This document shows positions 527 through 26,789 of a stretch of DNA of 26,789 bases, piece by piece. The notes below the pieces were generated by a model. The model saw only the letters and a program-made list of their open reading frames with translations. It was not told the DNA's origin and ran no database searches. This DNA is from a virus (Duplodnaviria; Caudoviricetes), in IMG/VR virus record IMGVR_UViG_3300030099_004360, positions 1 through 26,789 of that record; one strand, written 5' to 3'. Position 1 is the first letter of the stretch, and each line of letters begins with the position of its first letter. The position numbers were made by a program, and so were the translations under genes.

Positions 527-3500
527 TTATCTACCAGAAGTTTTATTTTTTTCTTCATCTTTTTTCTTTTTGTCTTGTAGTGCTATTATTTTTTTGATTC
601 TATTTTTTTCGTATCTTAACTCTCTAATTTCTTTATTTGTTAGACCTAGGTCTAGTAACATTTTCTTTTGCTCTCTAGTATTAGTATTTTGCCTCATCTC
701 AATCTCTCTGTTCTCCATTTCACGCTCAGGACTTAATGGTTCGTTGCTGGGAACACCGTAGTATGGTAAACCAACATCCCAAGTACTCCAACCTAATGCT
801 AGTGCTATTTTCTGCCATTTTTCAGAATTATCACTAAGTATCATACGAGTGTTATTTATCTTTTGTAAAGCTCTATCAGCTGGTATATTAACACCTGCAG
901 ATATTAATTGAGCTGTAGCCAAGTAAGCTGGATTATTTAAGTTAAAACCTTCTTCTTGAATAGCTTGTCTTTCCCAACTAAATGTATTAGCTGCAGATAT
1001 TATTTTTCTGGCTTTAACATCAATCGGTGGTGAAAAATCAAGCAAGTCGTTAACGGCTTTTCTAAACTCTGGAGAATCTTTTTCATTTTCTCTAGCAATA
1101 GTAAACAAAGAATTTTTAAGCGCTATAGCTACTGATCCTTGATAACCTAAACCACCTAATAGTGAGTCAACCATGCCGTTTGCAGTTCTAGCTCCTTTTT
1201 CTGTACCATCTCCATCTTCATCAAATGCTTCTGTCCAAATAGCGTTTTGTAATCCATTAAATAATAAGTTTTGAGCAGCGCCATAGTATGCTATTTTAGA
1301 AACATTTGTTTTCCAATCACCTCTACCGTTGACCAAGTCTTGTGTAGATCTTTTTATTATACGAGCATACTGCATTGGTGTGTTTTTAAAGGCTAGTATT
1401 AATCTACCACCTCCACTTGCTTGTTGCTGGCTAATTCTCATAGGACTACTAGACTGCTGGTTTTCTTCTGATACTTTTCTAAAATCATCAAAGGCTTTTC
1501 GCTGAGCTTCTTCAGTACTTAAACCTTGTTTTTCGTAAGTCATTATTCTGTTTCTATAAAAAGTAGCGCCACCACTTGCAATTGCAAAACTATCAGCTCC
1601 TCTAGTCAAAACAAAACCTTTATTTAATAAATATGCTATAGCTCCTTTAGCCCCATCTTTTTTAGCTGCATCTGCTATTTCTGATTCAGTTACGTTTATT
1701 TGAAGACCTTCTCTTCTATTAACTAAATAATCTGAATTAAACAATGTTGAAAAATCTTTCCAATATTGTTTTTGATTAGCAAAAGCTTTACCAGCTGCAT
1801 ATGGATTATTATCACCCCAATTTAAATAATTTACCGCAGATATTGTTTGAAGAGTCGCTGATCTGGTATTTAAAAACATTGTAGCTCCAACAGAACCATT
1901 AACCCAATCAAGCATATTGTTAATAGTTCTAGATCCACCAATAGGTTTATTGTTACCGCTTTTCATACGTCTTAGCATATCATCTAAAGCTTCAATATAT
2001 TTATCGCCAAAAGCATATCTAAGTTTTCTTTTATTTTCTGGAGAGAATATAATATCTACGTTTTCTTGCCACTCTTGTAAATACTCTTTTCTATTTACTT
2101 TATTTATTTCACTCATTATATCTGTTGTCAAAGTACCAGCAACCCAGTTTTTATCTGGTTTAGGATATTGTTTACCCTTTTGCATCTTTATAACTTCTTG
2201 AACAAAAATATTAAGATCTGAATTATCTCTAACAAACTTATTTAGTTCTTTTGCATCTCTTTTAGATAAACCAGGTATTTCCATACCTTGCTGTGTCCAT
2301 ATAGCAACACGAGCAGCGTCACCAAAACTAAAACCACCTATACCAGTTTCTTTATTCATTGATTTAGGTAAATTAGTTAACCTGCTTTTAAGCTCTTTAA
2401 AATCAGAAGAAGCTGCTATTTTAGCAGATTCAATTTTTCTTTCAGCTAAATTAAATGGATCAATTAAATTTTCTTGATAAAACTGAAACATATTTTCACC
2501 TGCTTTACCTTTTGGTAATGTTGCATATAATAATCCTTGAAAGTCTTCTGCTGAATAACCCATGAAAAAGTTTTTAAACATATTCATGTTTTTACGTCTA
2601 CCCATTGTTTGAGCCCTAGCTTCAGATATTTGCCAGTCAGCACCTACTTTATTGCCAAGCTCTGTTGTTCTAAGCTCTAAATTCTGATTAAATATATCAT
2701 TAAAATCTTTAGGTTTAGAACTTAATCTAGCTTGAACAGGTCCATCAATTTGTAATACATCTATAACACCTTGTACAGCTTTAACATTTGGTAATATATC
2801 ATCTGCGAATAGAAAATCATTATAACCTTCCGCGCCTTTATTTATAAACCAATTTGCTTTTGCAGCTGGTGTACCATTTCCTAAGCCTATAATATTTTCT
2901 ACTGGTATGTCTATACCTTTTGACTTTAACCAAGCTTGCATTGGAGCAGCAAACTCTTTTGGCCTAGCGCTTAATACAAACATGTTTTCACCACCGTGTT
3001 GTTTATACTGCTCTAAGTATCTTTTAAACGCAGGTCCTTCTTCACCACCTTTTATTGTCATAAAATCATCAAAGTTAAACTTAGCACCCTGTGACTCTAA
3101 TTCTTTAGCTTGAGAGCCAAATTCACTTGGATCTAGTTCAAATTTTGTACCGTCAGGCATTTCTACTTTTACTTTACTTTTTGTAACAACTAATGTTTCG
3201 TCAGCATCAAATGCTGTTAAAGATTTTTTTTCTTTATTAAGTTTTCTAGCGTTTCTAGCGGCAGCATCTGTTTGAGCTAAGTGATATACTAAACCTTCTA
3301 CTGTATCTAAATTAGGAGATTTACCACCTACATATTGATTTTTTTGTTTACTTAAACTTGCGTTTACGCTAGGTTCTAGTAACATAAAAGCATCCATTTG
3401 TTGCTTAGCTTGTGTTCTAGTTAAAAACAATGGATTATCTTCGTTTAATATACCAGATTCAGATTCAATAACTCTTTGTATTAATCTACCTTGCTCGCTA

Positions 3501-6500
3501 ATAACAATAGGGTTATCAAAAAACTTTGGCTTTACGGCTACATTGTAATCTTCAGCATCAGTTCTGTATTCCCATTTTTTAGTTGTTTCATTATAATATT
3601 CTCTACCTACTTTATTAGAATTAGCAGCAAGATACTCATTATAATATCTATATCTTGGATCTGGTAATTTACTAAAATCACCTGTTTCTAAAGCTTCTTT
3701 TAAACGAGCTTCAAACTTAGGATGCATACCATCAGATGGACCATATCCTTCAATTGTTTCACCAGTATATCTATTAACAGTTATAGTGCCTTGATCAATT
3801 ATATTTTTAGTTTCTTTACTAACTTTTATTTGATAATAATTTTCTTTAGCCCACTTTTTAAAACCTTCATAAACTTTATCGCTACCACTTATAGCCCTAG
3901 CAAAAGCGTCAGCAAAGTTACCGTACTGAAAAACATGTTCTTCTCTACCTTTAACTCCAGGTCCAACACCTTTTTCTGCGCCCAACACAGTAGCAAAACC
4001 TCTAAAAGGATGATTTGTTGCATTACCAGTATAAATCAAGCTAATTAAAGCTCCAAGTTTATCAGGATTTTCTTTGTATATTTCTCTAAACTTATCAAAT
4101 ATTAATTCTTTACCTTCTTGAATATCTTCATATTCTCTTTTATTTTGCTCTAATTTACCTAGTGTTTGGGTTTTTAGAGCTAAAGCCATTTTTCTACCTT
4201 CTTCAGCAACAGCTTCTTCTGCTTGCTCTCTAGTATATTTCTTTTTAGTATTCGGGTTTATTTGATTTTCGTAAGCTTTTATTCTATTCTCTGTAATCTC
4301 TCTATCAATGATTTCGTTTTCAACCTCTTTGTTTAGCTCTACTAATTGTAATATTTCACCTTTTTGCTGAGCTTCTAAAAAATTCTTGTATTCCGGAGTA
4401 TAGTTTTCTTCAGTTTTAGGTTTTCCTTCAATATATTTGCCATATTTCTTTTCAATAGCTTCTAAAGTACCTGATTTATCACTTACACCAACCATTTTTC
4501 CACCTGTACCACTAGCTCTAGTTGGAACTCTCATACCGCCAGCTCCTAACCATTTTACTATTTGAGGAGTTAAATCACCAAACTTATCTACTAATTGATT
4601 TAATGTAAGTTCTCTATACATCTTAACTCTTTCTTTAGAGTCAGTTGGTAGTGGTGGCAATCCTTTTTCAGCTAAATATTCATTAAAGCTAGTTTCAAAT
4701 GTTTTTTTGCTAGCAGCTAAAGATCCGTATGGTGCTTCTATAATTTCTTCTGCAGCTACTGTTTCTTTTGGTTTGCTATATACCCCACCCATTTGAAGTC
4801 TTTCACCCTGCGTACTAGTTCTTTCAAGTATATTGTTACGCATATGCATGTCAGTAGCAAACTTTATACTAGCTTGTAAATCACCTCTATATATAGGTTT
4901 ACGTTTACCATTTTTGCCTACAGCATTAAACTCTATACCGTTTACTGTAACATTTTTACCTTGTAATATATCTCTATAATCTTTTAATGTACCTACAAGA
5001 TTACCTTCAGCATCATACATTGCTTTACCAAACTTATTTTGATAAACACCAGTACCTCTTCCAAGCATGTCTACTGTTTTAGGTAGTCTAGCAAAATCGG
5101 AAGCTGAATTATCGATTAAAAACTGTCTAAGTCTAATTAATGCTTTTTCATCTTTTTTAGGAAAGTTTCTCGCCTTTTCTGTAAGACCAGCAACTGTTTC
5201 AATACCAAACATATTAGCATAAAGCTTAGCAAGCTCTTCAGGAACTTTAGTGTCTTTAAACTTACTTACGTCTACACCTTCAAAATTTCTTTCAATTACT
5301 TCTGTAATATGTTCGTTTATTATTTCTGTATCAGATTTACCTTCGCCTCTTTTCTGCTCTATAATCTCTTGAGCAATACCTAAAGTACCTAAAGCTTCTG
5401 GCTTATATATTGTTGTTGATGTAGGTGGTTTTGCAAGTCCTTTATTATCAGTAGGTCTTTCTTCTGTCAACACCATTTCTTCAGTTTCTACAACTTCTTT
5501 ACCTTGTTCTCTTCTTTGATCAGCACTATCAGTAATTGTTTCTTTTTCTAGTGTTTTATAAAACTTTTCAGCTTTAGGCCTAATGTTTGAATAAAAGAAA
5601 GTACTAAAATTAATACCTCTATCTGGATTAAATCTTCTTAATATACCTGTAAAATACTGTTGAGCATCACTTTCAAACTCTTCTTGTGTTTTAGTACCTT
5701 TTTTAACATCAAACTTCCACGCATCAGCTGTCATTGTAAACATTTGATCTAATAAATTTTTAGGTATATTAGTTTGACTGTTTATAGTAGGGTTGTTTTC
5801 TTTAAACTCTAATATTAATTCATTAGCATTTTTCTTAGCAGATCTTGATGTTTCTACAGGGATAACACTGACATCTTCGCCTCTTGCTTTAGCAGCGTCT
5901 CTAGCATACTGTTCAGCTTGTATGATTGAGTTTTCTTTACCTTGAGCAAAACCGCTAATCATGTCAAATATTTGCTTACCAGTAACAGTTTCTGGATCAA
6001 TATTTTCTAATCCTTTTTCTTTTAAGAAAGGTACAAATCCTTTTAATTTTTCACCAAACTCTTCTGTAAATGTTATTCTTTTACTCTTTATTAGTTCTGA
6101 TAAAACAGATAAGTTTTCTTCATACCACTCATTTTTTGGTCTTTTAGTATCATATCTAGAGCTAACTTCTGCATCTAAAACAGCTCGCTGATTATCTGAT
6201 AGTTGAGATAAAGCATCATCTATAAGTTTAATACCTTCTTCAGTTACTTTATTATTATTATCTTTTAAAGAATATAATAAAACCTTATGAATATCTTCGT
6301 GGTTTTTACTAGTAAAATCTTTAATCTTAGTAGCAACTTCTAAGTTTACAAAAGCTTCACCTGTTTTTGGATTTATAACTGCTATTTCTTCTTTAACATT
6401 TTGAGCTTTTACTTCACCTGCTTCAACCCATTTATTAAAACTATCTTGAAACTCTTGCTTTGAGGTTTTAGGAGTCGTTTTACCACCAGGTAAATCATAT

Positions 6501-9500
6501 TCCATGGCTAACTCTTCTGTTAATAATTCTAAGTTTTCTTTTTTAATTTTGCTTTGTAAAGCCTCATATGTTGTACCACCTTTAGAATATCTAAATACTT
6601 CTAATTTTAAAGCATCTAATTCGCTTTTTATATCTATTTTTTCGCTTTCACTAAGACCTTCACCTTTTAATTGATTTTCTAAGGTTTTTAATTGATCGTT
6701 AAGCTCTTCTCTTTTCATTAAAAAGTTATAAGCTTCTTTTCTTGTCTTAGGATTTGAAGTATAAAATTCACCTTGAGCTGTAAAGTTGACTCCATTTTCC
6801 ATATAAAAAGCACCACCACCATTTAGTTGATGCTGTATATATCTATTGCGTAGTAAATAATTTTTTAATATATTATAAGCTGGTGTTCCGGCTTCTATAC
6901 CTAATCTTTCAGCAACTAATCTAGTTGGAGTTCCTGGTTGACCGAGTATATCTGATTCTGTTTCAGTTAATTTTGAACCAGCTTTTATTTTGTTTGATAT
7001 TATAAAAAGTTGATCGTCTGTTATTAACTTGCCATCTGGCTTTTTTCTATTTTCTTTTATAATATCTGATACTTCATTAAGAGCTAATTGATTTTTTACT
7101 CTTTGAGTATTAGTTAGTATTTCGTTAAAAGCATCTTCATATTCTTTTGAATCCATGCTTCCTTTTTTCTTTTTTAACTCTTCTAATGCTTTTGTTTGAG
7201 CATCAATAACTTTTTCATAAGAGTCTGCTTTAGGATCTTTTATAATATTGTTATCTATTCCTAATGATTTTGCGGCGTCTTTAGAGTCTTTTGTTAATCT
7301 ACCTTTATTACTTATTCTAACATAACTATTTTGGAAGGCATATGCCACGTTTTCCATGCCTTTAACACCTTTACCAACCCTACCCATTATCATCATTTTA
7401 AGAGTTTCCTCTACATGCTTTTCAAATAAGTTTGAACCTTCTGCTTCTAGACTTTCTAAATAATTACCAGTGTCTAAAACAAAAGAGCTAAACGCGCTAC
7501 CTGTTTGATATGCAAATGCCCCTGCTTGAGCCTCACCAGATCTTGTAATGAATTTGCCAGCTGTAGGATCTTTCATTAAACGCTGCATTATAGGTGTATA
7601 ACCAGCTACATATCTAGTATTAAGAAAATTTGAAAAACCTTTAAATAGAGCTTGACCAAAAGGCATAGAAGCACCAAATATAGCAGAGTCTAAAGCGCTG
7701 TCATCTTTTTCACCGTATAATTTTGTTGTCATTGCAAAGTCTGAGGCCTCGCCTATAGACTTAGCTGTTAAATCTATAGCTGTTTTAGCCCAAGGACTTC
7801 TAGCATAAATACCAGATCTTGCGCCAATGTCTTGAAAAAGCTTTGTAGCTCTTTGCCCATTAACAGGTGTTACTTTTCTAGTTAAACCTAGTTGAGCTAA
7901 AAATCCTCCAAAAACAACTAAACCTCTACTTACCTTGTTTCCAAAACCTTTATCTAATTGATCTGTTATTTCTTCTGGACTTACATCAAAACCTATATCG
8001 TTTAAAGCATCGGCAAATAAATTTTTTCTTTCATTTATAGTAACTATATTATCACCAAACATATTCATAGCTTCATCAACAACTTCCGCTGCTTCCATAG
8101 AGCTCTTCATAAATATAGGATTTCTATTTAATTGCATTGCTTGATTAAAAACAACATAGCCATTTAAAGCCTCGTTATACGCGGCTGCTAATGGATGTGA
8201 TGAAGGTATTTCTTTTAAACCAGCTGGTATTTCACCTGTGTTTATAAACTCAGTAATTTTTTCTATAAGACCTTTTGGTAATAAACCATTTTGAGATCTT
8301 ATATTACCAACTGGATATGTAAAATCAATGTCACCTGTATTCCAATCAGGGTGACTTTCCATCAATTTTTGATATTCATCAGGCGCATACATACCACTTT
8401 GACTTGTGTAAAAATCATCTGTATATCCTGTTATATTACCATCTTCATCTCTAATTACACCAGGAACAACACCAGGTATAGTAGAAACACTATCTGCACC
8501 TGTAAACCCTGTTCTACCTTGACCAAGCTTATTGTTTAATTCTCTAACGTCTTTAGATAATGTTAAAAGTTTATAGTACTGGCTTTCTAATCCTAATTCA
8601 AGATCTTCATATTCAGTAGTTATAGCTAATTCTTCTGATTTTTCATAATTAACTAAATCTTTAGTTGTAGCTTTATCTATACCTATAACTTCACCTGTAG
8701 CAGTATCGTATAGTTTAGTACCATAATTTCTTTCCTTAGCTAATTGCTCAATTTTTTTACCTAATGCTTCTTTTTCATCATTATTATCACCCATAGAATT
8801 ATAAAGATCATTAAGTCTTTTAAATTCTAATCCATCTTCGTCTAAATATCTTTCACCCCAATTAAATATTTGATCATAATCCCAGTTCCATTTATCTTTA
8901 ACTTCTTGCATTCCAGTAAAAATACGTCTACCTTGAAGATCAGGTAGGTTTACAGGAGCAATACCTTTAAAAATATCTAGGCCATAAGCACTTTCGCCTT
9001 CTTCTAATCCAGCAATATATTTATCTTTTATTTTTTGCTGTGCTTTAGGATCATTTGTAAACATCCAAGTAGTTTGGTTGTTTCTATTTTCACCCATAGC
9101 AAAATGAGCTGGTTTTTTTAACTCATCATTTAAATAATTATCTATAGCTAATTCTCTACCACCTAAAACAATAGGTTTATTTAAATCATACGTGTTTTCA
9201 TTTGGACCACCTAAATCTTGAGTATAAGTATTGTTAGATTCAGCCCATGTTCTTAGTTTTCTAAGACCGCTTTTATCATATTCATCATTCATGTTTGTCC
9301 ACACATCAATGCCTAGATGCTCACCCATTTCTGCGGGATTATAAGGATTATTAGCTACTAGTTCTATTTCTTCTAACTCAACTTGTTCAGCTTCTTGTTC
9401 TTTTTGATTCTTTAATAATTGTCTTTCAGTAAAATTTACTCTATCTTGTATTGCGCTTAAACTAAAGTCAATAGGCTTAAATGAGTTGCTTAAGTTTAAT

Positions 9501-9685
9501 TGACTATAATCAATAGTACTAAAATACTTTTGCTGCGGCGCGCTAGTCTCAACAACTTCTTCAACTTCTTCAACTTCTGGTTGAGGATTTTCTTTCTTCC
9601 ATATTTGAGCTAATCGAAAGATCTGTTCATCATTCAATCCCTCATCATGTAAAGAACTTATATAGTCTAATAAGTTGTCTGCCAT
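527..9685 (-). CDS. Giant (3052 aa) polyvalent, probably virion-ejected internal protein with zincin, sigma-r2-like and HAD domains
   Basis: Uninterrupted 9.16-kb ORF downstream of the tail and pilot-like genes. Gly/Ala-rich hydrophobic helices (GLVVFGGFLAQLGL; IAYYGAAQNLLFNGLQNAIW). HEDIH at aa 1129-1133, RRFNPDRGINFSTFFYSNIR from aa 1350, DADET at aa 2160. Confidence 0.85.
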   Translation of the reverse strand: MADNLLDYISSLHDEGLNDEQIFRLAQIWKKENPQPEVEEVEEVVETSAPQQKYFSTIDYSQLNLSNSFKPIDFSLSAIQDRVNFTERQLLKNQKEQEAEQVELEEIELVANNPYNPAEMGEHLGIDVWTNMNDEYDKSGLRKLRTWAESNNTYTQDLGGPNENTYDLNKPIVLGGRELAIDNYLNDELKKPAHFAMGENRNNQTTWMFTNDPKAQQKIKDKYIAGLEEGESAYGLDIFKGIAPVNLPDLQGRRIFTGMQEVKDKWNWDYDQIFNWGERYLDEDGLEFKRLNDLYNSMGDNNDEKEALGKKIEQLAKERNYGTKLYDTATGEVIGIDKATTKDLVNYEKSEELAITTEYEDLELGLESQYYKLLTLSKDVRELNNKLGQGRTGFTGADSVSTIPGVVPGVIRDEDGNITGYTDDFYTSQSGMYAPDEYQKLMESHPDWNTGDIDFTYPVGNIRSQNGLLPKGLIEKITEFINTGEIPAGLKEIPSSHPLAAAYNEALNGYVVFNQAMQLNRNPIFMKSSMEAAEVVDEAMNMFGDNIVTINERKNLFADALNDIGFDVSPEEITDQLDKGFGNKVSRGLVVFGGFLAQLGLTRKVTPVNGQRATKLFQDIGARSGIYARSPWAKTAIDLTAKSIGEASDFAMTTKLYGEKDDSALDSAIFGASMPFGQALFKGFSNFLNTRYVAGYTPIMQRLMKDPTAGKFITRSGEAQAGAFAYQTGSAFSSFVLDTGNYLESLEAEGSNLFEKHVEETLKMMIMGRVGKGVKGMENVAYAFQNSYVRISNKGRLTKDSKDAAKSLGIDNNIIKDPKADSYEKVIDAQTKALEELKKKKGSMDSKEYEDAFNEILTNTQRVKNQLALNEVSDIIKENRKKPDGKLITDDQLFIISNKIKAGSKLTETESDILGQPGTPTRLVAERLGIEAGTPAYNILKNYLLRNRYIQHQLNGGGAFYMENGVNFTAQGEFYTSNPKTRKEAYNFLMKREELNDQLKTLENQLKGEGLSESEKIDIKSELDALKLEVFRYSKGGTTYEALQSKIKKENLELLTEELAMEYDLPGGKTTPKTSKQEFQDSFNKWVEAGEVKAQNVKEEIAVINPKTGEAFVNLEVATKIKDFTSKNHEDIHKVLLYSLKDNNNKVTEEGIKLIDDALSQLSDNQRAVLDAEVSSRYDTKRPKNEWYEENLSVLSELIKSKRITFTEEFGEKLKGFVPFLKEKGLENIDPETVTGKQIFDMISGFAQGKENSIIQAEQYARDAAKARGEDVSVIPVETSRSAKKNANELILEFKENNPTINSQTNIPKNLLDQMFTMTADAWKFDVKKGTKTQEEFESDAQQYFTGILRRFNPDRGINFSTFFYSNIRPKAEKFYKTLEKETITDSADQRREQGKEVVETEEMVLTEERPTDNKGLAKPPTSTTIYKPEALGTLGIAQEIIEQKRGEGKSDTEIINEHITEVIERNFEGVDVSKFKDTKVPEELAKLYANMFGIETVAGLTEKARNFPKKDEKALIRLRQFLIDNSASDFARLPKTVDMLGRGTGVYQNKFGKAMYDAEGNLVGTLKDYRDILQGKNVTVNGIEFNAVGKNGKRKPIYRGDLQASIKFATDMHMRNNILERTSTQGERLQMGGVYSKPKETVAAEEIIEAPYGSLAASKKTFETSFNEYLAEKGLPPLPTDSKERVKMYRELTLNQLVDKFGDLTPQIVKWLGAGGMRVPTRASGTGGKMVGVSDKSGTLEAIEKKYGKYIEGKPKTEENYTPEYKNFLEAQQKGEILQLVELNKEVENEIIDREITENRIKAYENQINPNTKKKYTREQAEEAVAEEGRKMALALKTQTLGKLEQNKREYEDIQEGKELIFDKFREIYKENPDKLGALISLIYTGNATNHPFRGFATVLGAEKGVGPGVKGREEHVFQYGNFADAFARAISGSDKVYEGFKKWAKENYYQIKVSKETKNIIDQGTITVNRYTGETIEGYGPSDGMHPKFEARLKEALETGDFSKLPDPRYRYYNEYLAANSNKVGREYYNETTKKWEYRTDAEDYNVAVKPKFFDNPIVISEQGRLIQRVIESESGILNEDNPLFLTRTQAKQQMDAFMLLEPSVNASLSKQKNQYVGGKSPNLDTVEGLVYHLAQTDAAARNARKLNKEKKSLTAFDADETLVVTKSKVKVEMPDGTKFELDPSEFGSQAKELESQGAKFNFDDFMTIKGGEEGPAFKRYLEQYKQHGGENMFVLSARPKEFAAPMQAWLKSKGIDIPVENIIGLGNGTPAAKANWFINKGAEGYNDFLFADDILPNVKAVQGVIDVLQIDGPVQARLSSKPKDFNDIFNQNLELRTTELGNKVGADWQISEARAQTMGRRKNMNMFKNFFMGYSAEDFQGLLYATLPKGKAGENMFQFYQENLIDPFNLAERKIESAKIAASSDFKELKSRLTNLPKSMNKETGIGGFSFGDAARVAIWTQQGMEIPGLSKRDAKELNKFVRDNSDLNIFVQEVIKMQKGKQYPKPDKNWVAGTLTTDIMSEINKVNRKEYLQEWQENVDIIFSPENKRKLRYAFGDKYIEALDDMLRRMKSGNNKPIGGSRTINNMLDWVNGSVGATMFLNTRSATLQTISAVNYLNWGDNNPYAAGKAFANQKQYWKDFSTLFNSDYLVNRREGLQINVTESEIADAAKKDGAKGAIAYLLNKGFVLTRGADSFAIASGGATFYRNRIMTYEKQGLSTEEAQRKAFDDFRKVSEENQQSSSPMRISQQQASGGGRLILAFKNTPMQYARIIKRSTQDLVNGRGDWKTNVSKIAYYGAAQNLLFNGLQNAIWTEAFDEDGDGTEKGARTANGMVDSLLGGLGYQGSVAIALKNSLFTIARENEKDSPEFRKAVNDLLDFSPPIDVKARKIISAANTFSWERQAIQEEGFNLNNPAYLATAQLISAGVNIPADRALQKINNTRMILSDNSEKWQKIALALGWSTWDVGLPYYGVPSNEPLSPEREMENREIEMRQNTNTREQKKMLLDLGLTNKEIRELRYEKNRIKKIIALQDKKKKDEEKNKTSGR
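2750..3230 (-). other. HAD-superfamily phosphatase domain within the giant protein
   Basis: Motif I LTAFDADETL (DxDxT, nt 3194-3208), motif II MFVLSAR, motif III AAKANW, motif IV FLFADD (DD at 2798-2803), all in canonical order. Confidence 0.85.
5550..5830 (-). other. Sigma70 region-2-like segment within the giant protein
   Basis: EEFESDAQQYFTGILRRFNPDRGINFSTFFYSNIRPKA aligns by eye with the sigma region 2.2-2.4 pattern (EDLxQEGxxGLxxAxxKFDPxRGxxFSTYAxxWIR). Confidence 0.6.
6050..6400 (-). other. Zincin-like metallopeptidase (HExxH) domain within the giant protein
   Basis: Beta-strands IAVINP..AFVNLE precede helix NHEDIHKVLL (HEDIH at nt 6287-6301). Downstream EWYEE (about 6115-6130) is a candidate third zinc ligand. 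Confidence 0.7.
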
Positions 9686-20120: not shown

Positions 20121-21587
20121 CTAGATACCTTTGAATAATACAAAGTTATTAGCAGCTTGTGTTACTAAACATCTTTCTGAAAGGAAGTTTACTTCCATTG
20201 CATCAAGAGTTGAAGTAAATGCACCACCAGCAGAACCAGTAATCCAAGACTTCATTCTTCTGTCGTCAGCTTGAGAAGCTCTATAACGTACATGTAAGAA
20301 AGGTCTTCTGATATTAGTTCCTAAGATTTGGTCATAAACAGTAGAAGTTCCAGCAGGTACTAATACACCTTCAATTGAATTAACACCGTTAATACCACCT
20401 CTTGTAGAAGCGTCATTTAAGTATTTCCAATCAGTTTTGTAAAAGTCATAAGAACCTCTTCTAAAACCTGTAAATCCTAAGTTAAGTGCCATCTCTTCTG
20501 AATTTTCAAATAATCCAAAAGCAGTACCACCTGCACCACCGGCAGAAATAGATCCTAACATGTCATCAAAATCTAATGCAGTTGCTCTTTGTAAGAAAAG
20601 CATGTTTTCTTCAATAGCTCCTTGAGTATCTAAGTTTTGAAGTATTTCATCAAAATCTCCAATACCAGAACCTGCAGTAAATCCTACTTCTACGTTACCT
20701 CTATCCTCAATGGCAGCAAATAAACCTTGTGTACCTGGTAATTGAGCCGGTGTATTAACACCACCAATACCTGCGTTAAGTTCACCTTCAACACATACCA
20801 TTTCTAAATAATCTTCGAATCTTAGTCTTGTTTCAGACTCAGCTTTTAAATACCATAAGTATCCAGAAGCTCCATCTTCAGTCGCAACTTCAACCCAACC
20901 GATTTGAGCCATATCAGAACCAGATACTACGTACTGATCTCTAATAATAACTGGTGAGTTAGCATATTGAGTAAAGCTAGGCTCTACACTGTTTCTAGAA
21001 GCTGAGTTACCAAGAGTAGTTCCATCTTGAATAACAGTTCCTTTTGTGTAAGCAGAACCATAAACAAAAGCTTTAAGACCTGCAACTGAAAATCCTTGAG
21101 CAGATAATGTAGCTACTGGGTCAAAACACTCAATAACAACGTTACCTACACCAGGACCAGCGCCGGCACCTGTATTTACATCTATTACAATACATTTAGC
21201 CTCTAATCCAGTAGCTGGATCTAAAACTACGATTGTATCGTTAACGCTCATAACCATTTCTTGACCTGCAGCAGCACCTAAAGTTAGAACAGTAGTTGTT
21301 CCTACTCCGGCAGCTTGAGTCATTCCGTCATAAGCAATGTGTAATCTATTTTGTTCAGACCAGATTACTTGATCTGAGGTCATTGGCATTTCTGCACCGA
21401 CCATTCTTAAAAATCCAGATAACGTTCTGTTTCCATAACGCTCTACTTCTTGTTCGTAGACCTCTGGCAAATACTGTTGGATAAAGTCATTTGCACCACC
21501 CGTGTTAAACTGTAAATAGTTACTGTTTAATACCTCTTGGGTTTGTGATGGCAAAATCGATCCAAACTGTGGACTTAATGTTCCCAT
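20121..21587 (-). CDS. Major capsid protein (488 aa)
   Basis: Position after portal and scaffold, and size. QYLPEVYEQEVERYGNRTLSGFLRMVGAEMP..SDQVIWSEQNRLH N-arm/E-loop region, GTQGLFAAIEDRGN, C-terminal FLSERCLVTQAANNF. C-ending codon bias typical of a highly expressed gene. Confidence 0.85.
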   Translation of the reverse strand: MGTLSPQFGSILPSQTQEVLNSNYLQFNTGGANDFIQQYLPEVYEQEVERYGNRTLSGFLRMVGAEMPMTSDQVIWSEQNRLHIAYDGMTQAAGVGTTTVLTLGAAAGQEMVMSVNDTIVVLDPATGLEAKCIVIDVNTGAGAGPGVGNVVIECFDPVATLSAQGFSVAGLKAFVYGSAYTKGTVIQDGTTLGNSASRNSVEPSFTQYANSPVIIRDQYVVSGSDMAQIGWVEVATEDGASGYLWYLKAESETRLRFEDYLEMVCVEGELNAGIGGVNTPAQLPGTQGLFAAIEDRGNVEVGFTAGSGIGDFDEILQNLDTQGAIEENMLFLQRATALDFDDMLGSISAGGAGGTAFGLFENSEEMALNLGFTGFRRGSYDFYKTDWKYLNDASTRGGINGVNSIEGVLVPAGTSTVYDQILGTNIRRPFLHVRYRASQADDRRMKSWITGSAGGAFTSTLDAMEVNFLSERCLVTQAANNFVLFKGI

Positions 21588-21601: not shown

Positions 21602-22810
21602 TTAGTTAAATTTTCTAGTTTTAATTCTAAGTTTTGTAGAATCTGCACCACTAATTGATTTCACTTTCATTCCACCAACGAAAACTTCACCTGTATTACC
21701 TTCTCTTGCTTTCACATCAGAAAGATTTTTAGATTTATTTACCACTTCTTTTACCGCATCGGCTTTACCTTGCTCGTAAAAATGTGTAGCGATTTTATCT
21801 ACGTTTGAAGCAGCATACATTGCTTTATGATAACCAGCCGGGTCTACTACATTTCCATCTGAATCTAGGAACTTCCCTATTAAGTTGTTAATGTTTGATT
21901 GGTTCTCTGCAATTTGTTCACGATTTTGCACGTTATACTTATACCTCTTACCTCCAACTTCAAAATCAAAACCTTTGAAATCTTCGCTGAATAGTTTTTG
22001 AGTTTTTTGTTTAAACGCATCATGTAATTGCTCAGCTTGTTCTTGCTGTTTATTGTAACGATTAAAAAACTCCATTGCCTTTTGTTGCTCTTGGTTAACA
22101 CCAGGTCTTAACTTTATTTCTTCGTAATACTTGGTTTTTAACTCTTCTAAATATTTTTTAGCATTAGCAACTTCTTCTTTAAATGCTAGTTTTCTTTTTC
22201 GTATTTCTTTTTCCTCATGTAAATCTTCGTCCCACTCATAATCTTCTAAAATAAGATCAATATCGTCTGAATCTAAATGAGGTTTATTTTTTTTATAATA
22301 TTCTTTTAACAATGCTTTTTCATTAACATTACTGTAGTCTGCATTTAACCTTACATAGTCTTCTACAGTGCCTCCAGTTTCTTCCATAAAGCTTACAAGT
22401 TTTTCAACGTTTTCAGGTAATTTTCTGCCTAATACCTGCTCGTCTCTTTTAGCTTCTTTTACTTCAGCTTCAACCTGCTTAACTTCTTCTTCTGTTACTT
22501 CTTGGATCGGAGAAAACCCTTCAGTAGTCTCTTTGGACTCTTGTACAGGTTCTCCCACCTTTGAGCTATCTCCGGATGGTTTTTCCACAGATAGTTCCTC
22601 TGTTTCTCCGATTTGAATGGCATCGTCTTCTTTTTTAATTTCAACTTTTTTAACATTAGGCTCAACTTCTACTAAAGGTTCTTTCATGTTTACCTTTTGT
22701 ATTTCTTGTTCTTTATTACCTAATTGTTTTGGTTTTTTTGGTTTTGATTTACCTTTTAAAGTAAATTCACCTTCCTGTTTAACAGGTTCATTTGTTTTTG
22801 TTTCTGACAT
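21602..22810 (-). CDS. Putative scaffolding/head assembly protein (402 aa)
   Basis: Between portal and MCP. Very Glu/Lys-rich disordered N-terminus, coiled coil, conserved-looking C-terminus (HFYEQGKADAVK). Confidence 0.7.
   Translation of the reverse strand: MSETKTNEPVKQEGEFTLKGKSKPKKPKQLGNKEQEIQKVNMKEPLVEVEPNVKKVEIKKEDDAIQIGETEELSVEKPSGDSSKVGEPVQESKETTEGFSPIQEVTEEEVKQVEAEVKEAKRDEQVLGRKLPENVEKLVSFMEETGGTVEDYVRLNADYSNVNEKALLKEYYKKNKPHLDSDDIDLILEDYEWDEDLHEEKEIRKRKLAFKEEVANAKKYLEELKTKYYEEIKLRPGVNQEQQKAMEFFNRYNKQQEQAEQLHDAFKQKTQKLFSEDFKGFDFEVGGKRYKYNVQNREQIAENQSNINNLIGKFLDSDGNVVDPAGYHKAMYAASNVDKIATHFYEQGKADAVKEVVNKSKNLSDVKAREGNTGEVFVGGMKVKSISGADSTKLRIKTRKFN
22495..22623 (-). CDS. Overprinted small basic protein (42 aa), MPFKSEKQR-type, nested in +1 frame of scaffold gene
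   Basis: ATG 22623-22621 to TAA 22497-22495: MPFKSEKQRNYLWKNHPEIAQRWENLYKSPKRLLKGFLRSKK. Leader AATTAAAAAAGAAGACG has A at -3, -6 and -8..-13. Locally raised GC. Confidence 0.7.
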   Translation of the reverse strand: MPFKSEKQRNYLWKNHPEIAQRWENLYKSPKRLLKGFLRSKK

Positions 22811-22841: not shown

Positions 22842-25238
22842 CTACATAGGCATAGGAGGCTGAGCGCCTTCTTGCATAGCAGGTTCTTCAAAATTTATTG
22901 GTGGAGAATCGTTTTTACGCTGTGATATTAATTCACTTGCTTGAGTAGCTTCCATTTTACTTCTTTTATCTTTACGATCCTCAATCATTTTTTCTTTTGT
23001 AGAAACACCTTGAACCTCAACTTGCTTTAATTGCATGTCAAATTGATGTTGCATTTGCATTTCTTGTTTTTTAAGTTGAGCTTGTATTTGCATACGCTCT
23101 ATTTCAAATTGGCTTTTAGCTTTTTCATACTCAACATTAGCGCCAGATATAGCTTGTTGTTTTTGTACCTCTGCCATAGCTGTTTTTTCAGCTGTTTCTG
23201 CTTGAGCTTGAGCTTGAGCTTGAATATTAGCTTGTTGATTAGCTTGATCTTGTTTTGCTTTTTGCTTACGTTTTACTTTTAACATTTGGTTAGCTAGCTT
23301 AAGATTTTTAATACTTCTTAAATCAATAGCGTCTTCAACGTCTATATTTTTAGCTTGTAAAGCAATTTGTATATTTTGCTCTAATTTAGCTTGTTCTTCT
23401 TCATCTGGTTCTAATTCTAAAAATATTCCAAAATCATGAAGGTTTAAATTAACAACCTCTTCTAAAGTTTTTACATTATAAGTTGATATAGAGTTTTGCA
23501 GCGAAGACTTTGTTAAAGGAAACTCTAAAGCATCTGCTACTTTTAAACTAATATTTTCTGCAAGTTTAAGAGTTAGATAAAGACTAGACTGAGATATATG
23601 TCTAGTTGCTACATTAGATGCGTTAGCGGCTAGCTTCTGTAATCCTACAAGCGTATTACGATCTGGTAAACTACCATCTCTAGCTTCGTTTAATCCGGTC
23701 ACATCTCTAATCATTTGTAAATAGTATTGATACGTTTGTATCAAGCTTTGTATTTTTCCACCACCAGCTGATGAACTAAGTTCTTGTATAGGAACTTTAC
23801 CAGCATTCATATCTCCTTCTTGTGTTAATGATCTACCAACAATACTACCAGTTTGAAAATACATATTTAAAGCTTCAGCTGGATTATAATTAGTACCATT
23901 ACCTAAATCAACTTCGGCTAAACCGTCCATATCTAAATACACACCATCTGGTACCATACGAGATATAACCTGTTGTAGTTTTAAATGTGTAATTTGAATC
24001 ATATCAGCAAAACCAGTACATTTACTAACCAAAGACTCTATTCTACCCTTGTAAATTCTTGGTGCACATATAGCATAATTCATCTTTACCTTGGTAGTAT
24101 CAGCGTAAGGTCTAGACATGTTTTCTGCTAACTCCCACTTCAACATAGTGTCTGTGCCTAATACTTTTGCGCCACTATATAAAACCTCTATAGATCTTGA
24201 TACTCTTTCAAACATATCGTTTTCAGGAGGATTAAACGTATCAGGTTTTTCTATAGCTTTGACTAAACCTTGATCTGTTTGTTTTATTTTAAAAACTTGA
24301 TTGTGATAAGTTTTATAATCAAAATACAATACTTGAACCGTGTTTGTATCATAATCACCCCAACCTGTAATGTAAGATCTATTACCAGGCATAGCCTGTA
24401 TTCTTTCTAATTCTTTTTCAGATATATTTGGAAATTCTTTTTTAAGCTCTGATATTGTTATAGCTTTTAATTCACCTACATAGTATATATCTTCAAAATT
24501 TGGATCTTCTGTATAAGAATATACCATATAAGCTGGATCAACATAGTCTACTGTAATGCCTTCGGCTGTGTTAAAATTAGTTTTAGCTGCAGCAATACCA
24601 CAAGTAACTAAGTCCATGTTTAATCTACGCCTAGTTAAATCGTATTTATTTTGAGATAACACGCTAGATATTGCCTCTTCTTCTGCTATTTCCACGCTTT
24701 GTTTATATGAAAGCTGCATATGAAGTTCTAACTCTTCAGTTGTTTCAGGAACAATATCCATGTTGGGAGCTTGATACAAATCAATACCGAGCGTTTCTTT
24801 TAAATTATCTAAATACTGTTTAGACAACATATCTTCATATATTTTAGAAGCATATGAAGTTCGTTTTTTTATAGACTCTGGATCTTGCGCGTAAGCTTTT
24901 ATATCGTATGTTTTTGAAGATATACCGTTTACAACTATATCTACAAACTTAGATAAAATAGGTACTGGTTTCCAGTCTAAATTTAAATAAGATAAATCGC
25001 CGTTAATAGCTAATTCATCTTTATATTTTTGTATTGATTGTTCTCCTCTAGCATAAGTTCTTAGCATGTGGAAATTATTCCAGTTAGTCAAGTATCTATT
25101 ACCACTAGTTCTTCCTTGTGAAAACCACTCTTGCTCTATAGCTTGCGCTACTTGAGAACCATATTCTAAACTTGCTTTCTCTGCGTCACTTACTACTTGA
25201 CTTGGAAAAGGACTATTAGTATTAGTGTATATATTCAT
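22842..25238 (-). CDS. Portal protein (798 aa)
   Basis: Directly follows terminase (TAA-ATG). Motifs LNLDWKPVPILSKFVDIVVNG and IRDVTGLNEARDG. Long Gln/Ala C-terminal coiled coil like the barrel of P22-type portals. Confidence 0.85.
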   Translation of the reverse strand: MNIYTNTNSPFPSQVVSDAEKASLEYGSQVAQAIEQEWFSQGRTSGNRYLTNWNNFHMLRTYARGEQSIQKYKDELAINGDLSYLNLDWKPVPILSKFVDIVVNGISSKTYDIKAYAQDPESIKKRTSYASKIYEDMLSKQYLDNLKETLGIDLYQAPNMDIVPETTEELELHMQLSYKQSVEIAEEEAISSVLSQNKYDLTRRRLNMDLVTCGIAAAKTNFNTAEGITVDYVDPAYMVYSYTEDPNFEDIYYVGELKAITISELKKEFPNISEKELERIQAMPGNRSYITGWGDYDTNTVQVLYFDYKTYHNQVFKIKQTDQGLVKAIEKPDTFNPPENDMFERVSRSIEVLYSGAKVLGTDTMLKWELAENMSRPYADTTKVKMNYAICAPRIYKGRIESLVSKCTGFADMIQITHLKLQQVISRMVPDGVYLDMDGLAEVDLGNGTNYNPAEALNMYFQTGSIVGRSLTQEGDMNAGKVPIQELSSSAGGGKIQSLIQTYQYYLQMIRDVTGLNEARDGSLPDRNTLVGLQKLAANASNVATRHISQSSLYLTLKLAENISLKVADALEFPLTKSSLQNSISTYNVKTLEEVVNLNLHDFGIFLELEPDEEEQAKLEQNIQIALQAKNIDVEDAIDLRSIKNLKLANQMLKVKRKQKAKQDQANQQANIQAQAQAQAETAEKTAMAEVQKQQAISGANVEYEKAKSQFEIERMQIQAQLKKQEMQMQHQFDMQLKQVEVQGVSTKEKMIEDRKDKRSKMEATQASELISQRKNDSPPINFEEPAMQEGAQPPMPM

Positions 25239-26789
25239 TTAACTTATTATTTTTGATTTAGCTCCTTGATTATTATATTTTTTAATACCTAAATCAACCG
25301 CTTTTAATTCTCTTTTAACTGATGGTGTGTATCTATGTTTGTTGCAAGCCATCAATGCCAAACCAGAACTAATAGAAGCATCGTGTGTTGTTCTATTGTT
25401 TATATTGAATTTCGCCCAGTCTTCTAATGTTCTTTGAAAATACATATCGCCATAACCAGCTTCTTTTAAACCTACAAAATGCTCTATATAAGTTTCTATT
25501 GCTGCCGCATGAGCTTGCTTTATATCTTCACTAGAATTAGGTATGCCACCTATTTCTCTTTCTGTTATAGATAATTTATTTCTTTTTTTATCAGGTCTAT
25601 TCATTGCAAAACCTCTATAACCTCTTTTTTTAAAATAATATAATAATCTTGGTTTATTATTTTCTGCAAGTATTGGCATACCATAAAAAACACAAGCCAT
25701 TAAAACATCTTCAAAAAATATTTCTGCAGTTTGTGGCCTAGCAATATATTCTAAGAAAAAATGATTTGGAGGTGCGTTTTCCATGCTAAATTTAGTTAAT
25801 CCATGCAACGATCCATTAGAACCTCTTTTATCTACAGTTCCTGATATATCATAAGGATCACATCCAAAAGCACCTATATGCTCGTTACCTGGATAATTAA
25901 TTCCATTTTTATTATATCTTCTGTTTTGCAAAGATATATCTGGAATCCAAGTAATATAAAATCTACCATTATTGTTTGGAATAAATATTACTTTAGTATC
26001 TTTTTCTCCATTTTCCCATTGAAAATTACCTTGAGTTACATTTATACTATTTTGTAGATCTTCATTAAAATCTATTTGCTCGTATATTTTTGTTAAATTA
26101 AACAAAGACTGTTTAGATTCGTCTCTAAAAGCATGCTTAGTTGTTCTTGGAAACTGTCTATAAAATTCATTTAAACCATCTTGATCACCTTTTAATCCAG
26201 CTACTTCGTTATCCCAATATTCTATAACGCCTTGTTTTATTAAAGAGCCCTGAGGGTCTTTTGCTGGTTTTTTAGGTGTTTCGAATACAGGTAGTCCATA
26301 AGAATCAATGTATCCCTCGTAGTTCCATTCCATAGGTATGAACAAACTATATAATCCTGAGCGAGTCTGTCCATTGCTATTTCTTTTTGTGACATCTGAG
26401 TCATCGTATAATTTTTTAAAATTTCTTCCACCTTTGTCTAATGAGTTACTGGTTGAACCCATCATACATTTACCAATTATTTTACTACCTAATCGTAAGG
26501 TGGTTTTCGTAACGCGCCAGTTGTTGAGTATATTGTTTGGTTTCTCCCATTTACCTGATTCGTCGTGTACGAGTAGCTTGAGTTTCTCACCGTCGTAGGA
26601 GTTGTCACCGGTATTTTTCCAGTCGATAGTTGTGTCAAGTCCCTGTAATTCGTCCTGTAAGGTTTCGTCGGCGGAGGCGGTAAGCTTACGACGGGTGTAC
26701 TTGGTTGCGGGTACACGGTAGGCAAGCTCGGTCTTGGGACGGTCCATTCCGTCCTGGGTCGGCTTGAAAAAGAAAGGGTAGTTGACAGA
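25239..26789 (-). CDS. terL: Terminase large subunit, 5'-truncated by window edge
   Basis: The frame stays open upstream of the called Met to the window end (SVNYPFFFKPTQDG-MDRPK). Walker B LKLLVHDESGKW, coupling motif MMGSTSN, RNase H-like nuclease GAFGCDPYD, LAENNK, HDASISSGLA. Confidence 0.9.
   Translation of the reverse strand, partial: SVNYPFFFKPTQDGMDRPKTELAYRVPATKYTRRKLTASADETLQDELQGLDTTIDWKNTGDNSYDGEKLKLLVHDESGKWEKPNNILNNWRVTKTTLRLGSKIIGKCMMGSTSNSLDKGGRNFKKLYDDSDVTKRNSNGQTRSGLYSLFIPMEWNYEGYIDSYGLPVFETPKKPAKDPQGSLIKQGVIEYWDNEVAGLKGDQDGLNEFYRQFPRTTKHAFRDESKQSLFNLTKIYEQIDFNEDLQNSINVTQGNFQWENGEKDTKVIFIPNNNGRFYITWIPDISLQNRRYNKNGINYPGNEHIGAFGCDPYDISGTVDKRGSNGSLHGLTKFSMENAPPNHFFLEYIARPQTAEIFFEDVLMACVFYGMPILAENNKPRLLYYFKKRGYRGFAMNRPDKKRNKLSITEREIGGIPNSSEDIKQAHAAAIETYIEHFVGLKEAGYGDMYFQRTLEDWAKFNINNRTTHDASISSGLALMACNKHRYTPSVKRELKAVDLGIKKYNNQGAKSKIIS

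Follow-up and report, generated by a model that had tools for sequence, protein, structure and literature searches.

Small genes that lie wholly inside larger ones, in another reading frame, are well known in phages: the lysis gene E of phiX174 is nested in the scaffolding gene D, and Rz1 of lambda is nested in Rz. Here we describe a nested gene of a marine phage, in the virus record IMGVR_UViG_3300030099_004360, a stretch of 26.8 kb (42% complete) that was analysed whole and is called the window below. It is a 42-codon open reading frame (ORF) in the +1 frame of a host gene that likely encodes the capsid scaffold. As in phiX174 and lambda, a small gene with its own start lies wholly inside another, in its +1 frame, and in phiX174 the host is likewise a scaffold gene. 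Unlike E and Rz1, to which it has no sequence link, this inner gene has thousands of free-standing relatives and at least two host genes; the free relatives and the two nesting sites are what is new here. According to an excerpt of PMC8227390, the usual view of overlaps is that one frame is ancestral and the other arose de novo, the latter usually without homologues. The same excerpt describes an asymmetric overlap in apple stem grooving virus, where the movement protein lies over a linker of the polyprotein; a conserved inner protein and a fast-changing linker in the other frame are common to both cases, but that is one fixed overlap in an RNA virus, whereas the inner gene here is swapped, lost and found at a second site. 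We lean toward the view, taken as a whole, that the nested ORF encodes a selected basic peptide with its own start, which acts in the assembling head and comes from an old gene that was captured and has relocated. The features on which the argument draws are these:

22495..22623, minus strand: nested gene in the host gene's +1 frame (42 codons and a TAA stop; ATG at 22623, TAA ending at 22495)
22537..22623, minus strand: conserved family module, residues 1-29, with an N-terminal arm and predicted helices at residues 6-15 and 17-27
22498..22536, minus strand: basic tail, of low model confidence and variable across the family
22624..22637, minus strand: region before the start codon of the nested gene, rich in A (at -3, -6, -11, -12 and -13) and mostly unstructured
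22493..22624, minus strand: host-frame text over the nested gene, 44 codons (host codons 63-106) with a net charge of -8; in relatives variable, shortened or absent
21602..22810, minus strand: host gene, 402 amino acids, likely capsid scaffold from its position between portal and capsid; homologues are annotated 'structural protein'

A preliminary description of this DNA had placed a 42-codon +1-frame ORF here and quoted its peptide; both are exactly as described, and the strand, which it left unstated, is minus. The peptide is 5.3 kDa, with an isoelectric point of 10.6 and 12 Lys or Arg against 3 Asp or Glu. The length of the ORF alone is uninformative, because the same frame of the host gene holds a second ATG ORF, of 47 codons; the nested ORF stands beyond chance because it is conserved in relatives. 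The plus strand over the same positions is closed (no ORF). Two longer starts, TTG at 22665 and ATG at 22656, were ruled out, since relatives have stops there. No second nested gene lies 3' of the first in the window, and an ATG ORF of at least 15 codons occurs there in 4 of 184 distinct scaffolds.

Conservation was followed in 81 sequences, namely the window and 80 loci found with its host protein (one of which, L001, is identical to the window). The ORF is intact in 77 of them; two exceptions are cut short (L040, L047) and two lack the segment (L076, L080). Parsimony counts on 61 distinct coding sequences, drawn from 72 of the window's peptide type, gave 3.00, 0.42 and 0.67 changes per site at scaffold codon positions 1, 2 and 3 inside the segment, against 2.88, 1.96 and 5.04 before it, 4.00, 1.83 and 4.73 after it, and 1.51, 1.07 and 4.35 in the core. 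The preliminary description had proposed that conservation of the +1 ORF and suppressed synonymous variation in the scaffold be checked, and both are found (0.67 third-position changes per site against 4.35-5.04). The segment holds 29 scaffold third-position changes, and each of 274 sliding windows outside it at least 140. Among 37 variant alleles in the first 38 codons, 26 alter the scaffold only, 1 the peptide only and 10 both, which is 26 of 68 possible scaffold-only against 1 of 78 possible peptide-only variants (Fisher P 1.8e-9). In distant relatives the host text is unrecognisable, and the +1 frame still has Met-Pro and Gln8, in several peptide types, two of them with a Cys pair. Purifying selection acts on the nested frame, and the nested ORF is almost certainly a real gene.

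Frozen scaffold third positions would also be expected if a DNA or RNA element, and not a peptide, constrained the segment. Variation is free, however, exactly at the third positions of the peptide, including in copies nested in giant genes (66, 24 and 12 differences at peptide positions 3, 1 and 2, in seven non-independent pairs; see below), and Met-Pro and Gln8 persist in divergent types although their DNA has changed. We consider such an element extremely improbable.

The start of the nested gene carries a signature of its own. All 74 representative nested copies start with ATG, and A stands at -3, -6, -11, -12 and -13 in 0.88, 0.96, 0.95, 0.91 and 0.91 of them, compared with a linker background at the same codon positions of 0.49, 0.49, 0.53, 0.49 and 0.40; among other +1 ATGs the share with A at -3 is 0.38. 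In 18 of 25 start regions tested the folding energy was 0 (no predicted structure). A at these positions raises initiation in Flavobacterium johnsoniae, according to an excerpt of PMC6847099. The A-rich start, which had been recognized in the window as of the Bacteroidota type, is backed by this 74-copy context and supports initiation of that type, although it does not amount to 74 independent tests. The A-rich run before the ATG could instead be the site of a programmed +1 frameshift that fuses the N-terminus of the scaffold to the peptide, and frame-joined forms do exist in two database proteins (P0050, P0054) and at locus L242. Yet besides the ATG, retained in 74 of 74 copies, there is a +1-frame stop 1-25 codons upstream (median 6), the module begins at residue 1 in 142 of the 150 best family matches (proteins of up to 706 amino acids among them), and P0050 and P0054 come from one contig each, as expected of sequencing indels. 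A frameshift is thus an improbable source of the peptide. At L242 (4859-6044), the first 29 residues of the peptide run in frame into the scaffold core and the scaffold start ends after 76 codons, by a frameshift that is either real or an assembly error.

Dual coding has left its mark on the scaffold as well. The atypical scaffold codons pointed out in the preliminary description are present, and dual coding accounts for them: third-position G+C is 0.33 in the segment, 0.11 before it and 0.22 after it. Where a T at a peptide third position would create a host-frame stop, nested copies have it at 0 of 398 sites and non-nested genes at 261 of 590, the zero being partly built in, since the collection took open host frames only.

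The peptide had been taken, in the preliminary description, as the start of a widespread family of small phage proteins with stand-alone members, and a lack of homologues or of the ATG in related genomes had been named as what would speak against the gene. Profile search recovered 2,757 relatives at 90% clustering and 3,238 at 50%, and stand-alone loci are found both in GenBank and in metagenomes; together with the ATG kept in every representative, this is the opposite outcome. The window peptide fits the family pattern (N-terminal Met-Pro-Phe, Gln8, Trp13, Pro17, Trp23 and a basic tail) and is 52-81% identical to non-nested members; the family profile, in which it is included, matches the window genome at E 3.5e-19. 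A whole-genome profile scan of the window gave this single copy, and none in its 3,052-amino acid gene. The conserved part of the family, about 29 residues for which a short arm and two helices are predicted, precedes a basic tail that varies; in the peptide model, confidence (predicted local distance difference test) is 81-92 across the first 30 residues. The median net charge of 100 members is +12.

The motif pattern gave 120 metagenome matches, 80 stand-alone, 13 long and 27 nested (24 of the 27 in scaffold); the stand-alone class includes some cut-short loci, among them two edge-cut nested copies, and L384 is nested by rule, yet its host frame is unlike a protein. A head, virion or tail gene is near 15 of 17 non-nested loci, which were hand-picked from 50 and had their neighbours scanned, and the typical order is portal, small genes, peptide, GroES-like gene, capsid. 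In GenBank phages the gene lies in late regions; Streptomyces phage FlowerPower and 023Pt_psg01 have it annotated, and in P-RSP2, C75C1 and S-CBS2 it is unannotated. A scan of 185,579 species genomes gave 18 loci only; in five the gene is nested, its host ORF being of scaffold size or giant. Contigs filed under Pelagibacter, Parvibaculum and Saccharimonadales genomes (L726, L727, L733) contain nested copies of the kind these phages have, and may be mis-binned phage contigs.

Annotation and structure resources place the family among proteins of unknown function. Weak matches to phrog_1375 (unknown function) came from 75 of 100 members (best E 4.9e-5); the window peptide itself matched nothing in PHROG at E 0.1, phrog_1375 included, and nothing in a Pfam scan. 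Sequence searches of solved structures gave chance matches only, a wide profile yielding repeated propeller blades of about 4-7 bits each. Fold searches gave no match at E 0.001 in PDB and a best Z of 2.6 in a wide search; a 42-residue model is a weak query, and we make no claim of a new fold. The viral fold library returned uncharacterised proteins only, several of them family members, and the ESM Atlas unnamed viral clusters only, with DUF3008 (0.82) a lead under the useful level. A borderline match (18.5 bits, E about 0.1 in a search space of a million sequences) is gp8 of Mycobacteriophage Papyrus (NC_022053.1:5193-5354; L751:4977-5138), a basic protein of 53 amino acids encoded directly after the portal gene.

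Two variations within the family were observed in passing. A tail motif, S/N-P/A-x-K/R/Q-M/L (window 22536-22510, minus strand), occurs in 148 of 184 scaffold-nested peptides against 0 of the 99 members from databases; a constraint from the host frame could account for it, or it could act as a second signal. In two peptide types a conserved Cys pair, possibly a disulfide or metal staple, replaces the usual Trp13/His16 pattern (L476, L478, L479, L488, L509, L512 and L513; L174, L225 and L746).

Which of the two frames is the older can be approached from their distribution. The ORF is present in 184 of 200 distinct scaffolds. It occurs in every one of 63 distinct scaffolds from a deep sister group (the pattern identifies 56, and the other 7 are of a further Cys type) and, in an outgroup around the GenBank phage ctfjg026, in 0 of 55, which are mostly about 40-60 amino acids shorter. 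These two counts come from searches made by scaffold cores alone, which avoid the bias of finding scaffolds through the peptide. A tree built from 83 representatives shows the ORF throughout the ingroup (support 96/87) except for four separate absences, and at every one of these the protein is shorter; outgroup branches in it are long, and it is rooted by midpoint only. Near-identical scaffolds apparently swap or lose the segment: L198 and L217 are 88-100% identical in the core and about 50-67% in the segment, where they carry different peptide types, and L232 is without the cassette that the near-identical L205 carries.

The peptide gene is most likely the old partner, to judge from these comparisons, and the scaffold merely tolerates it; that the nested gene is an old gene that was captured is probable, and we hold this with good confidence. 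Capture is plausible because 6 of 90 non-nested genes would leave a host frame open throughout the module, and because acidic upstream ends overlap the peptide gene. The overlaps were seen in L362, L371, L429 and L432, in which the acidic C-terminal 18-32 codons of genes of about 100-130 amino acids cover the beginning of the peptide gene, with the two frames related as in the nested copies; this is a possible intermediate of nesting. The converse history is a de novo birth by overprinting on the scaffold gene, with later escape into the stand-alone family. For it one can cite the abundance of nested copies (27 of the 120 metagenome matches) and the usual form of de novo overlaps, which according to the excerpt of PMC8227390 is a +1 internal overlap in a disordered region. 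The same excerpt ties faster change to the de novo frame, however, and here it is the host frame, not the inner one, that is more variable; moreover, the inner gene has thousands of homologues outside the overlap, phages of Streptomyces, of cyanobacteria and of other lineages have it free-standing or as the N-terminus of longer proteins, and the outgroup scaffold is without such a segment. De novo birth is therefore quite improbable. The preliminary description had spoken of a hidden overprinted gene: hidden and selected the gene is, but the overprinting is probably the wrong way round, the peptide being old and widespread and the scaffold-frame text variable and dispensable.

Capture from an older gene gains a further dimension from a second nesting site. 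Elemovirus, Panino and the Pervagoviridae (phi38:1, Calle_1) have the same gene order as the window, but their scaffold is without the nested gene; in Elemovirus a copy lies in gp18. Genomes of this kind, with a scaffold without the ORF, were searched whole. One match each was found in five of five IMG/VR genomes (four of them at least 99% complete), in a sixth (75%), in ctfjg026 and in the cultured Flavobacterium phage elemoF 6-3D, and all eight copies are in the +1 frame of a very long ORF. The elemoF copy (NC_055853.1:52379-52507) is unannotated and lies at codon 1221 of gp18, a structural protein of 3,694 amino acids; that of ctfjg026 is inside a protein of 3,859 amino acids. The complete genome G001 likewise has its copy nested in a giant gene, which brings the total to 9 of 11 genomes with a scaffold without the gene. 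All 68 Flavobacterium records gave a match, and further giant hosts are L337, L731 and L733.

The giant-gene copies are under selection as well, since in the 12 closest pairs peptide identity is 79-93% and host-frame identity 41-72%, with differences concentrated at peptide third positions as given above. A-rich starts recur in 9-11 of 12 copies at each position. Four Cys-type copies are 79-83% identical to Cys-type scaffold copies, and L297 (giant gene) is 83% identical to the scaffold copy L261; the best matches of the other seven are 48-69%, among 11 scaffold copies compared. That giant-gene copies closely match scaffold copies of like type suggests more than one move between the sites. With host-frame text as the query for giant proteins, one near-identical protein only was found. 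In the giant hosts L297 (1751-10093), L337, L731 and L746, the nested gene is near a junction: L297 and L731 align (30% over 925 amino acids) up to the nested site and diverge after it, and a downstream region is common to L297, L337 and L746, with an HExxH motif in L297 and L337.

From these observations a sequence of events can be proposed. The peptide gene would first have been a free gene in late operons, captured into the acidic linker by insertion or read-through. Capture would be easy: codons for Lys-rich sequence, when in the +1 frame, give the host frame a text rich in Glu, Gln and Lys. An apparent need of the module for a free Met-Pro end would keep the gene a separate ORF, not fused in frame. 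Later, the segment would have been swapped, lost and moved between scaffold and giant virion-protein genes, with one detected copy per genome. On the late message, ribosomes would start at the internal ATG and yield a 5-kDa peptide beside scaffold and capsid; docking on a head component is the predicted task of its conserved N-terminal module, and DNA binding that of its basic tail. RNA runs hold only small shares of the stretch, as contigs, from which the frame read and expression cannot be told.

A role associated with the head is what we somewhat favor for the peptide. A place in the head is suggested because the host genes are structural and the neighbours belong to the head module, a free docking end because the module is fixed at the N-terminus, and DNA binding because the tail is basic. 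Small internal capsid proteins are known, such as phiX174 J and the T4 internal proteins, which have N-terminal targeting sequences. With these and with gp4 of Patience and Adjutor (excerpt of PMC11965321) the analogy is functional only: all are short, partly basic or N-terminally addressed, and encoded with head genes, but the peptide has no sequence or fold match to them among solved structures.

Alternatively, the gene may be real but its product have no place in the head and work inside the infected cell at a late stage, with a conserved host component as its target (the ribosome, RNA or a chaperone, for example). A small, very basic peptide conserved across phages of distant hosts with unrelated capsids would suit this role, as would the stand-alone genes placed shortly before a GroES-like gene in L252, L255 and 023Pt_psg01 and before the holin in FlowerPower. 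Against it stand the structural nature of the two host genes and of most neighbours, and the long proteins that begin with the module and are encoded after a virion-protein gene. One candidate of this class, the ribosome-rescue factor ArfA, gained no support in Pfam or among solved chains: the Pfam ArfA family matched 0 of 100 and 0 of 41 family members, and two profiles found no ArfA chain among solved structures at E 10. A KGKG-type motif, which we take to be a feature of ArfA, occurs in 0 of 99 and 0 of 184 peptides; a very distant kinship is possible. Overall, action on a host partner seems rather unlikely to us.

Several points weigh against a captured gene that acts in the head. The module hardly differs between phages whose capsids are unrelated, so that a nucleic acid or a host component would suit as its partner just as well as the capsid, and no family with a function, solved relative or fold match was found in Pfam, PHROG, solved structures or fold libraries. 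The gene is not universal, being absent from 11 of 196 distinct ingroup scaffolds, and whole-genome search gave no copy in two cultured relatives, Panino and phi38:1, or in four partial genomes (19-49% complete) of the loss lineages. Part of the scaffold set, including some deep tree branches, was found through the peptide, which biases it toward presence. The sequences also share ancestry, so that neither the 74 start contexts nor the allele counts are independent. Literature searches found no paper on the gene or family; subscription papers were largely, and proteomics supplements wholly, outside their coverage, and the latter could bear on the virion claim.

A broader reading, which we offer tentatively and think more doubtful than the head role itself, is that this is a nomadic nested gene: an ancient capsid-targeting, DNA-binding peptide, present as one copy per genome throughout a group of abundant aquatic Bacteroidota phages, always in the +1 frame of a structural gene and repeatedly moved from scaffold to giant virion-protein gene or back as a portable dual-coding cassette, whose N-terminal module would be a general address label for loading phage heads. 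The module is also the N-terminus of long Gly-rich proteins with repeated GGRIG-like motifs (L246, L248, L250, L251, L257, L259, L263, L270, L272, L278, L280, L281 and L291), on which it may be an address label for head cargo; a phrog_3287 virion-protein gene is upstream in six scanned loci of this group.

A hidden frame that is an old, widespread gene in two host genes would make capture and relocation another route to overlaps, and would show hiding places of a gene missed by annotation. The acidic motif that recurs in scaffold and in giant proteins would then be explained, as a shadow cast by that missed gene. The unannotated copy in the cultured phage elemoF 6-3D makes it possible to test a family that has over 3,000 clusters and no assigned function.

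The remaining features of the window are:

22842..25238, minus strand: portal protein (phrog_6547, E 5.6e-146)
20121..21587, minus strand: major capsid protein (virion structural protein match; one homologue annotated major capsid protein)
25239..26789, minus strand: terminase large subunit, cut by the window end
527..9685, minus strand: giant ORF of 3052 amino acids, with no family copy inside, unlike the giant genes of the sister lineage

The giant ORF gave nothing significant against the giant proteins of elemoF and ctfjg026 (best E 0.13). The bacterial host of the phage is likely a member of the Bacteroidota, because the capsid protein resembles those of Maribacter phage Panino (46% identity), Elemovirus (40-41%) and the Cellulophaga phages phi38:1 and Calle_1 (34-35%). 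Comparison with known families gave the 402-amino acid host gene a single, weak match, to phrog_24543 (unknown function, E 0.018). Its linker may be disordered, judging from composition. The gene lies between the portal and capsid genes, the position expected of a scaffolding protein, and from this and the annotation of its homologues it is likely the capsid scaffold.
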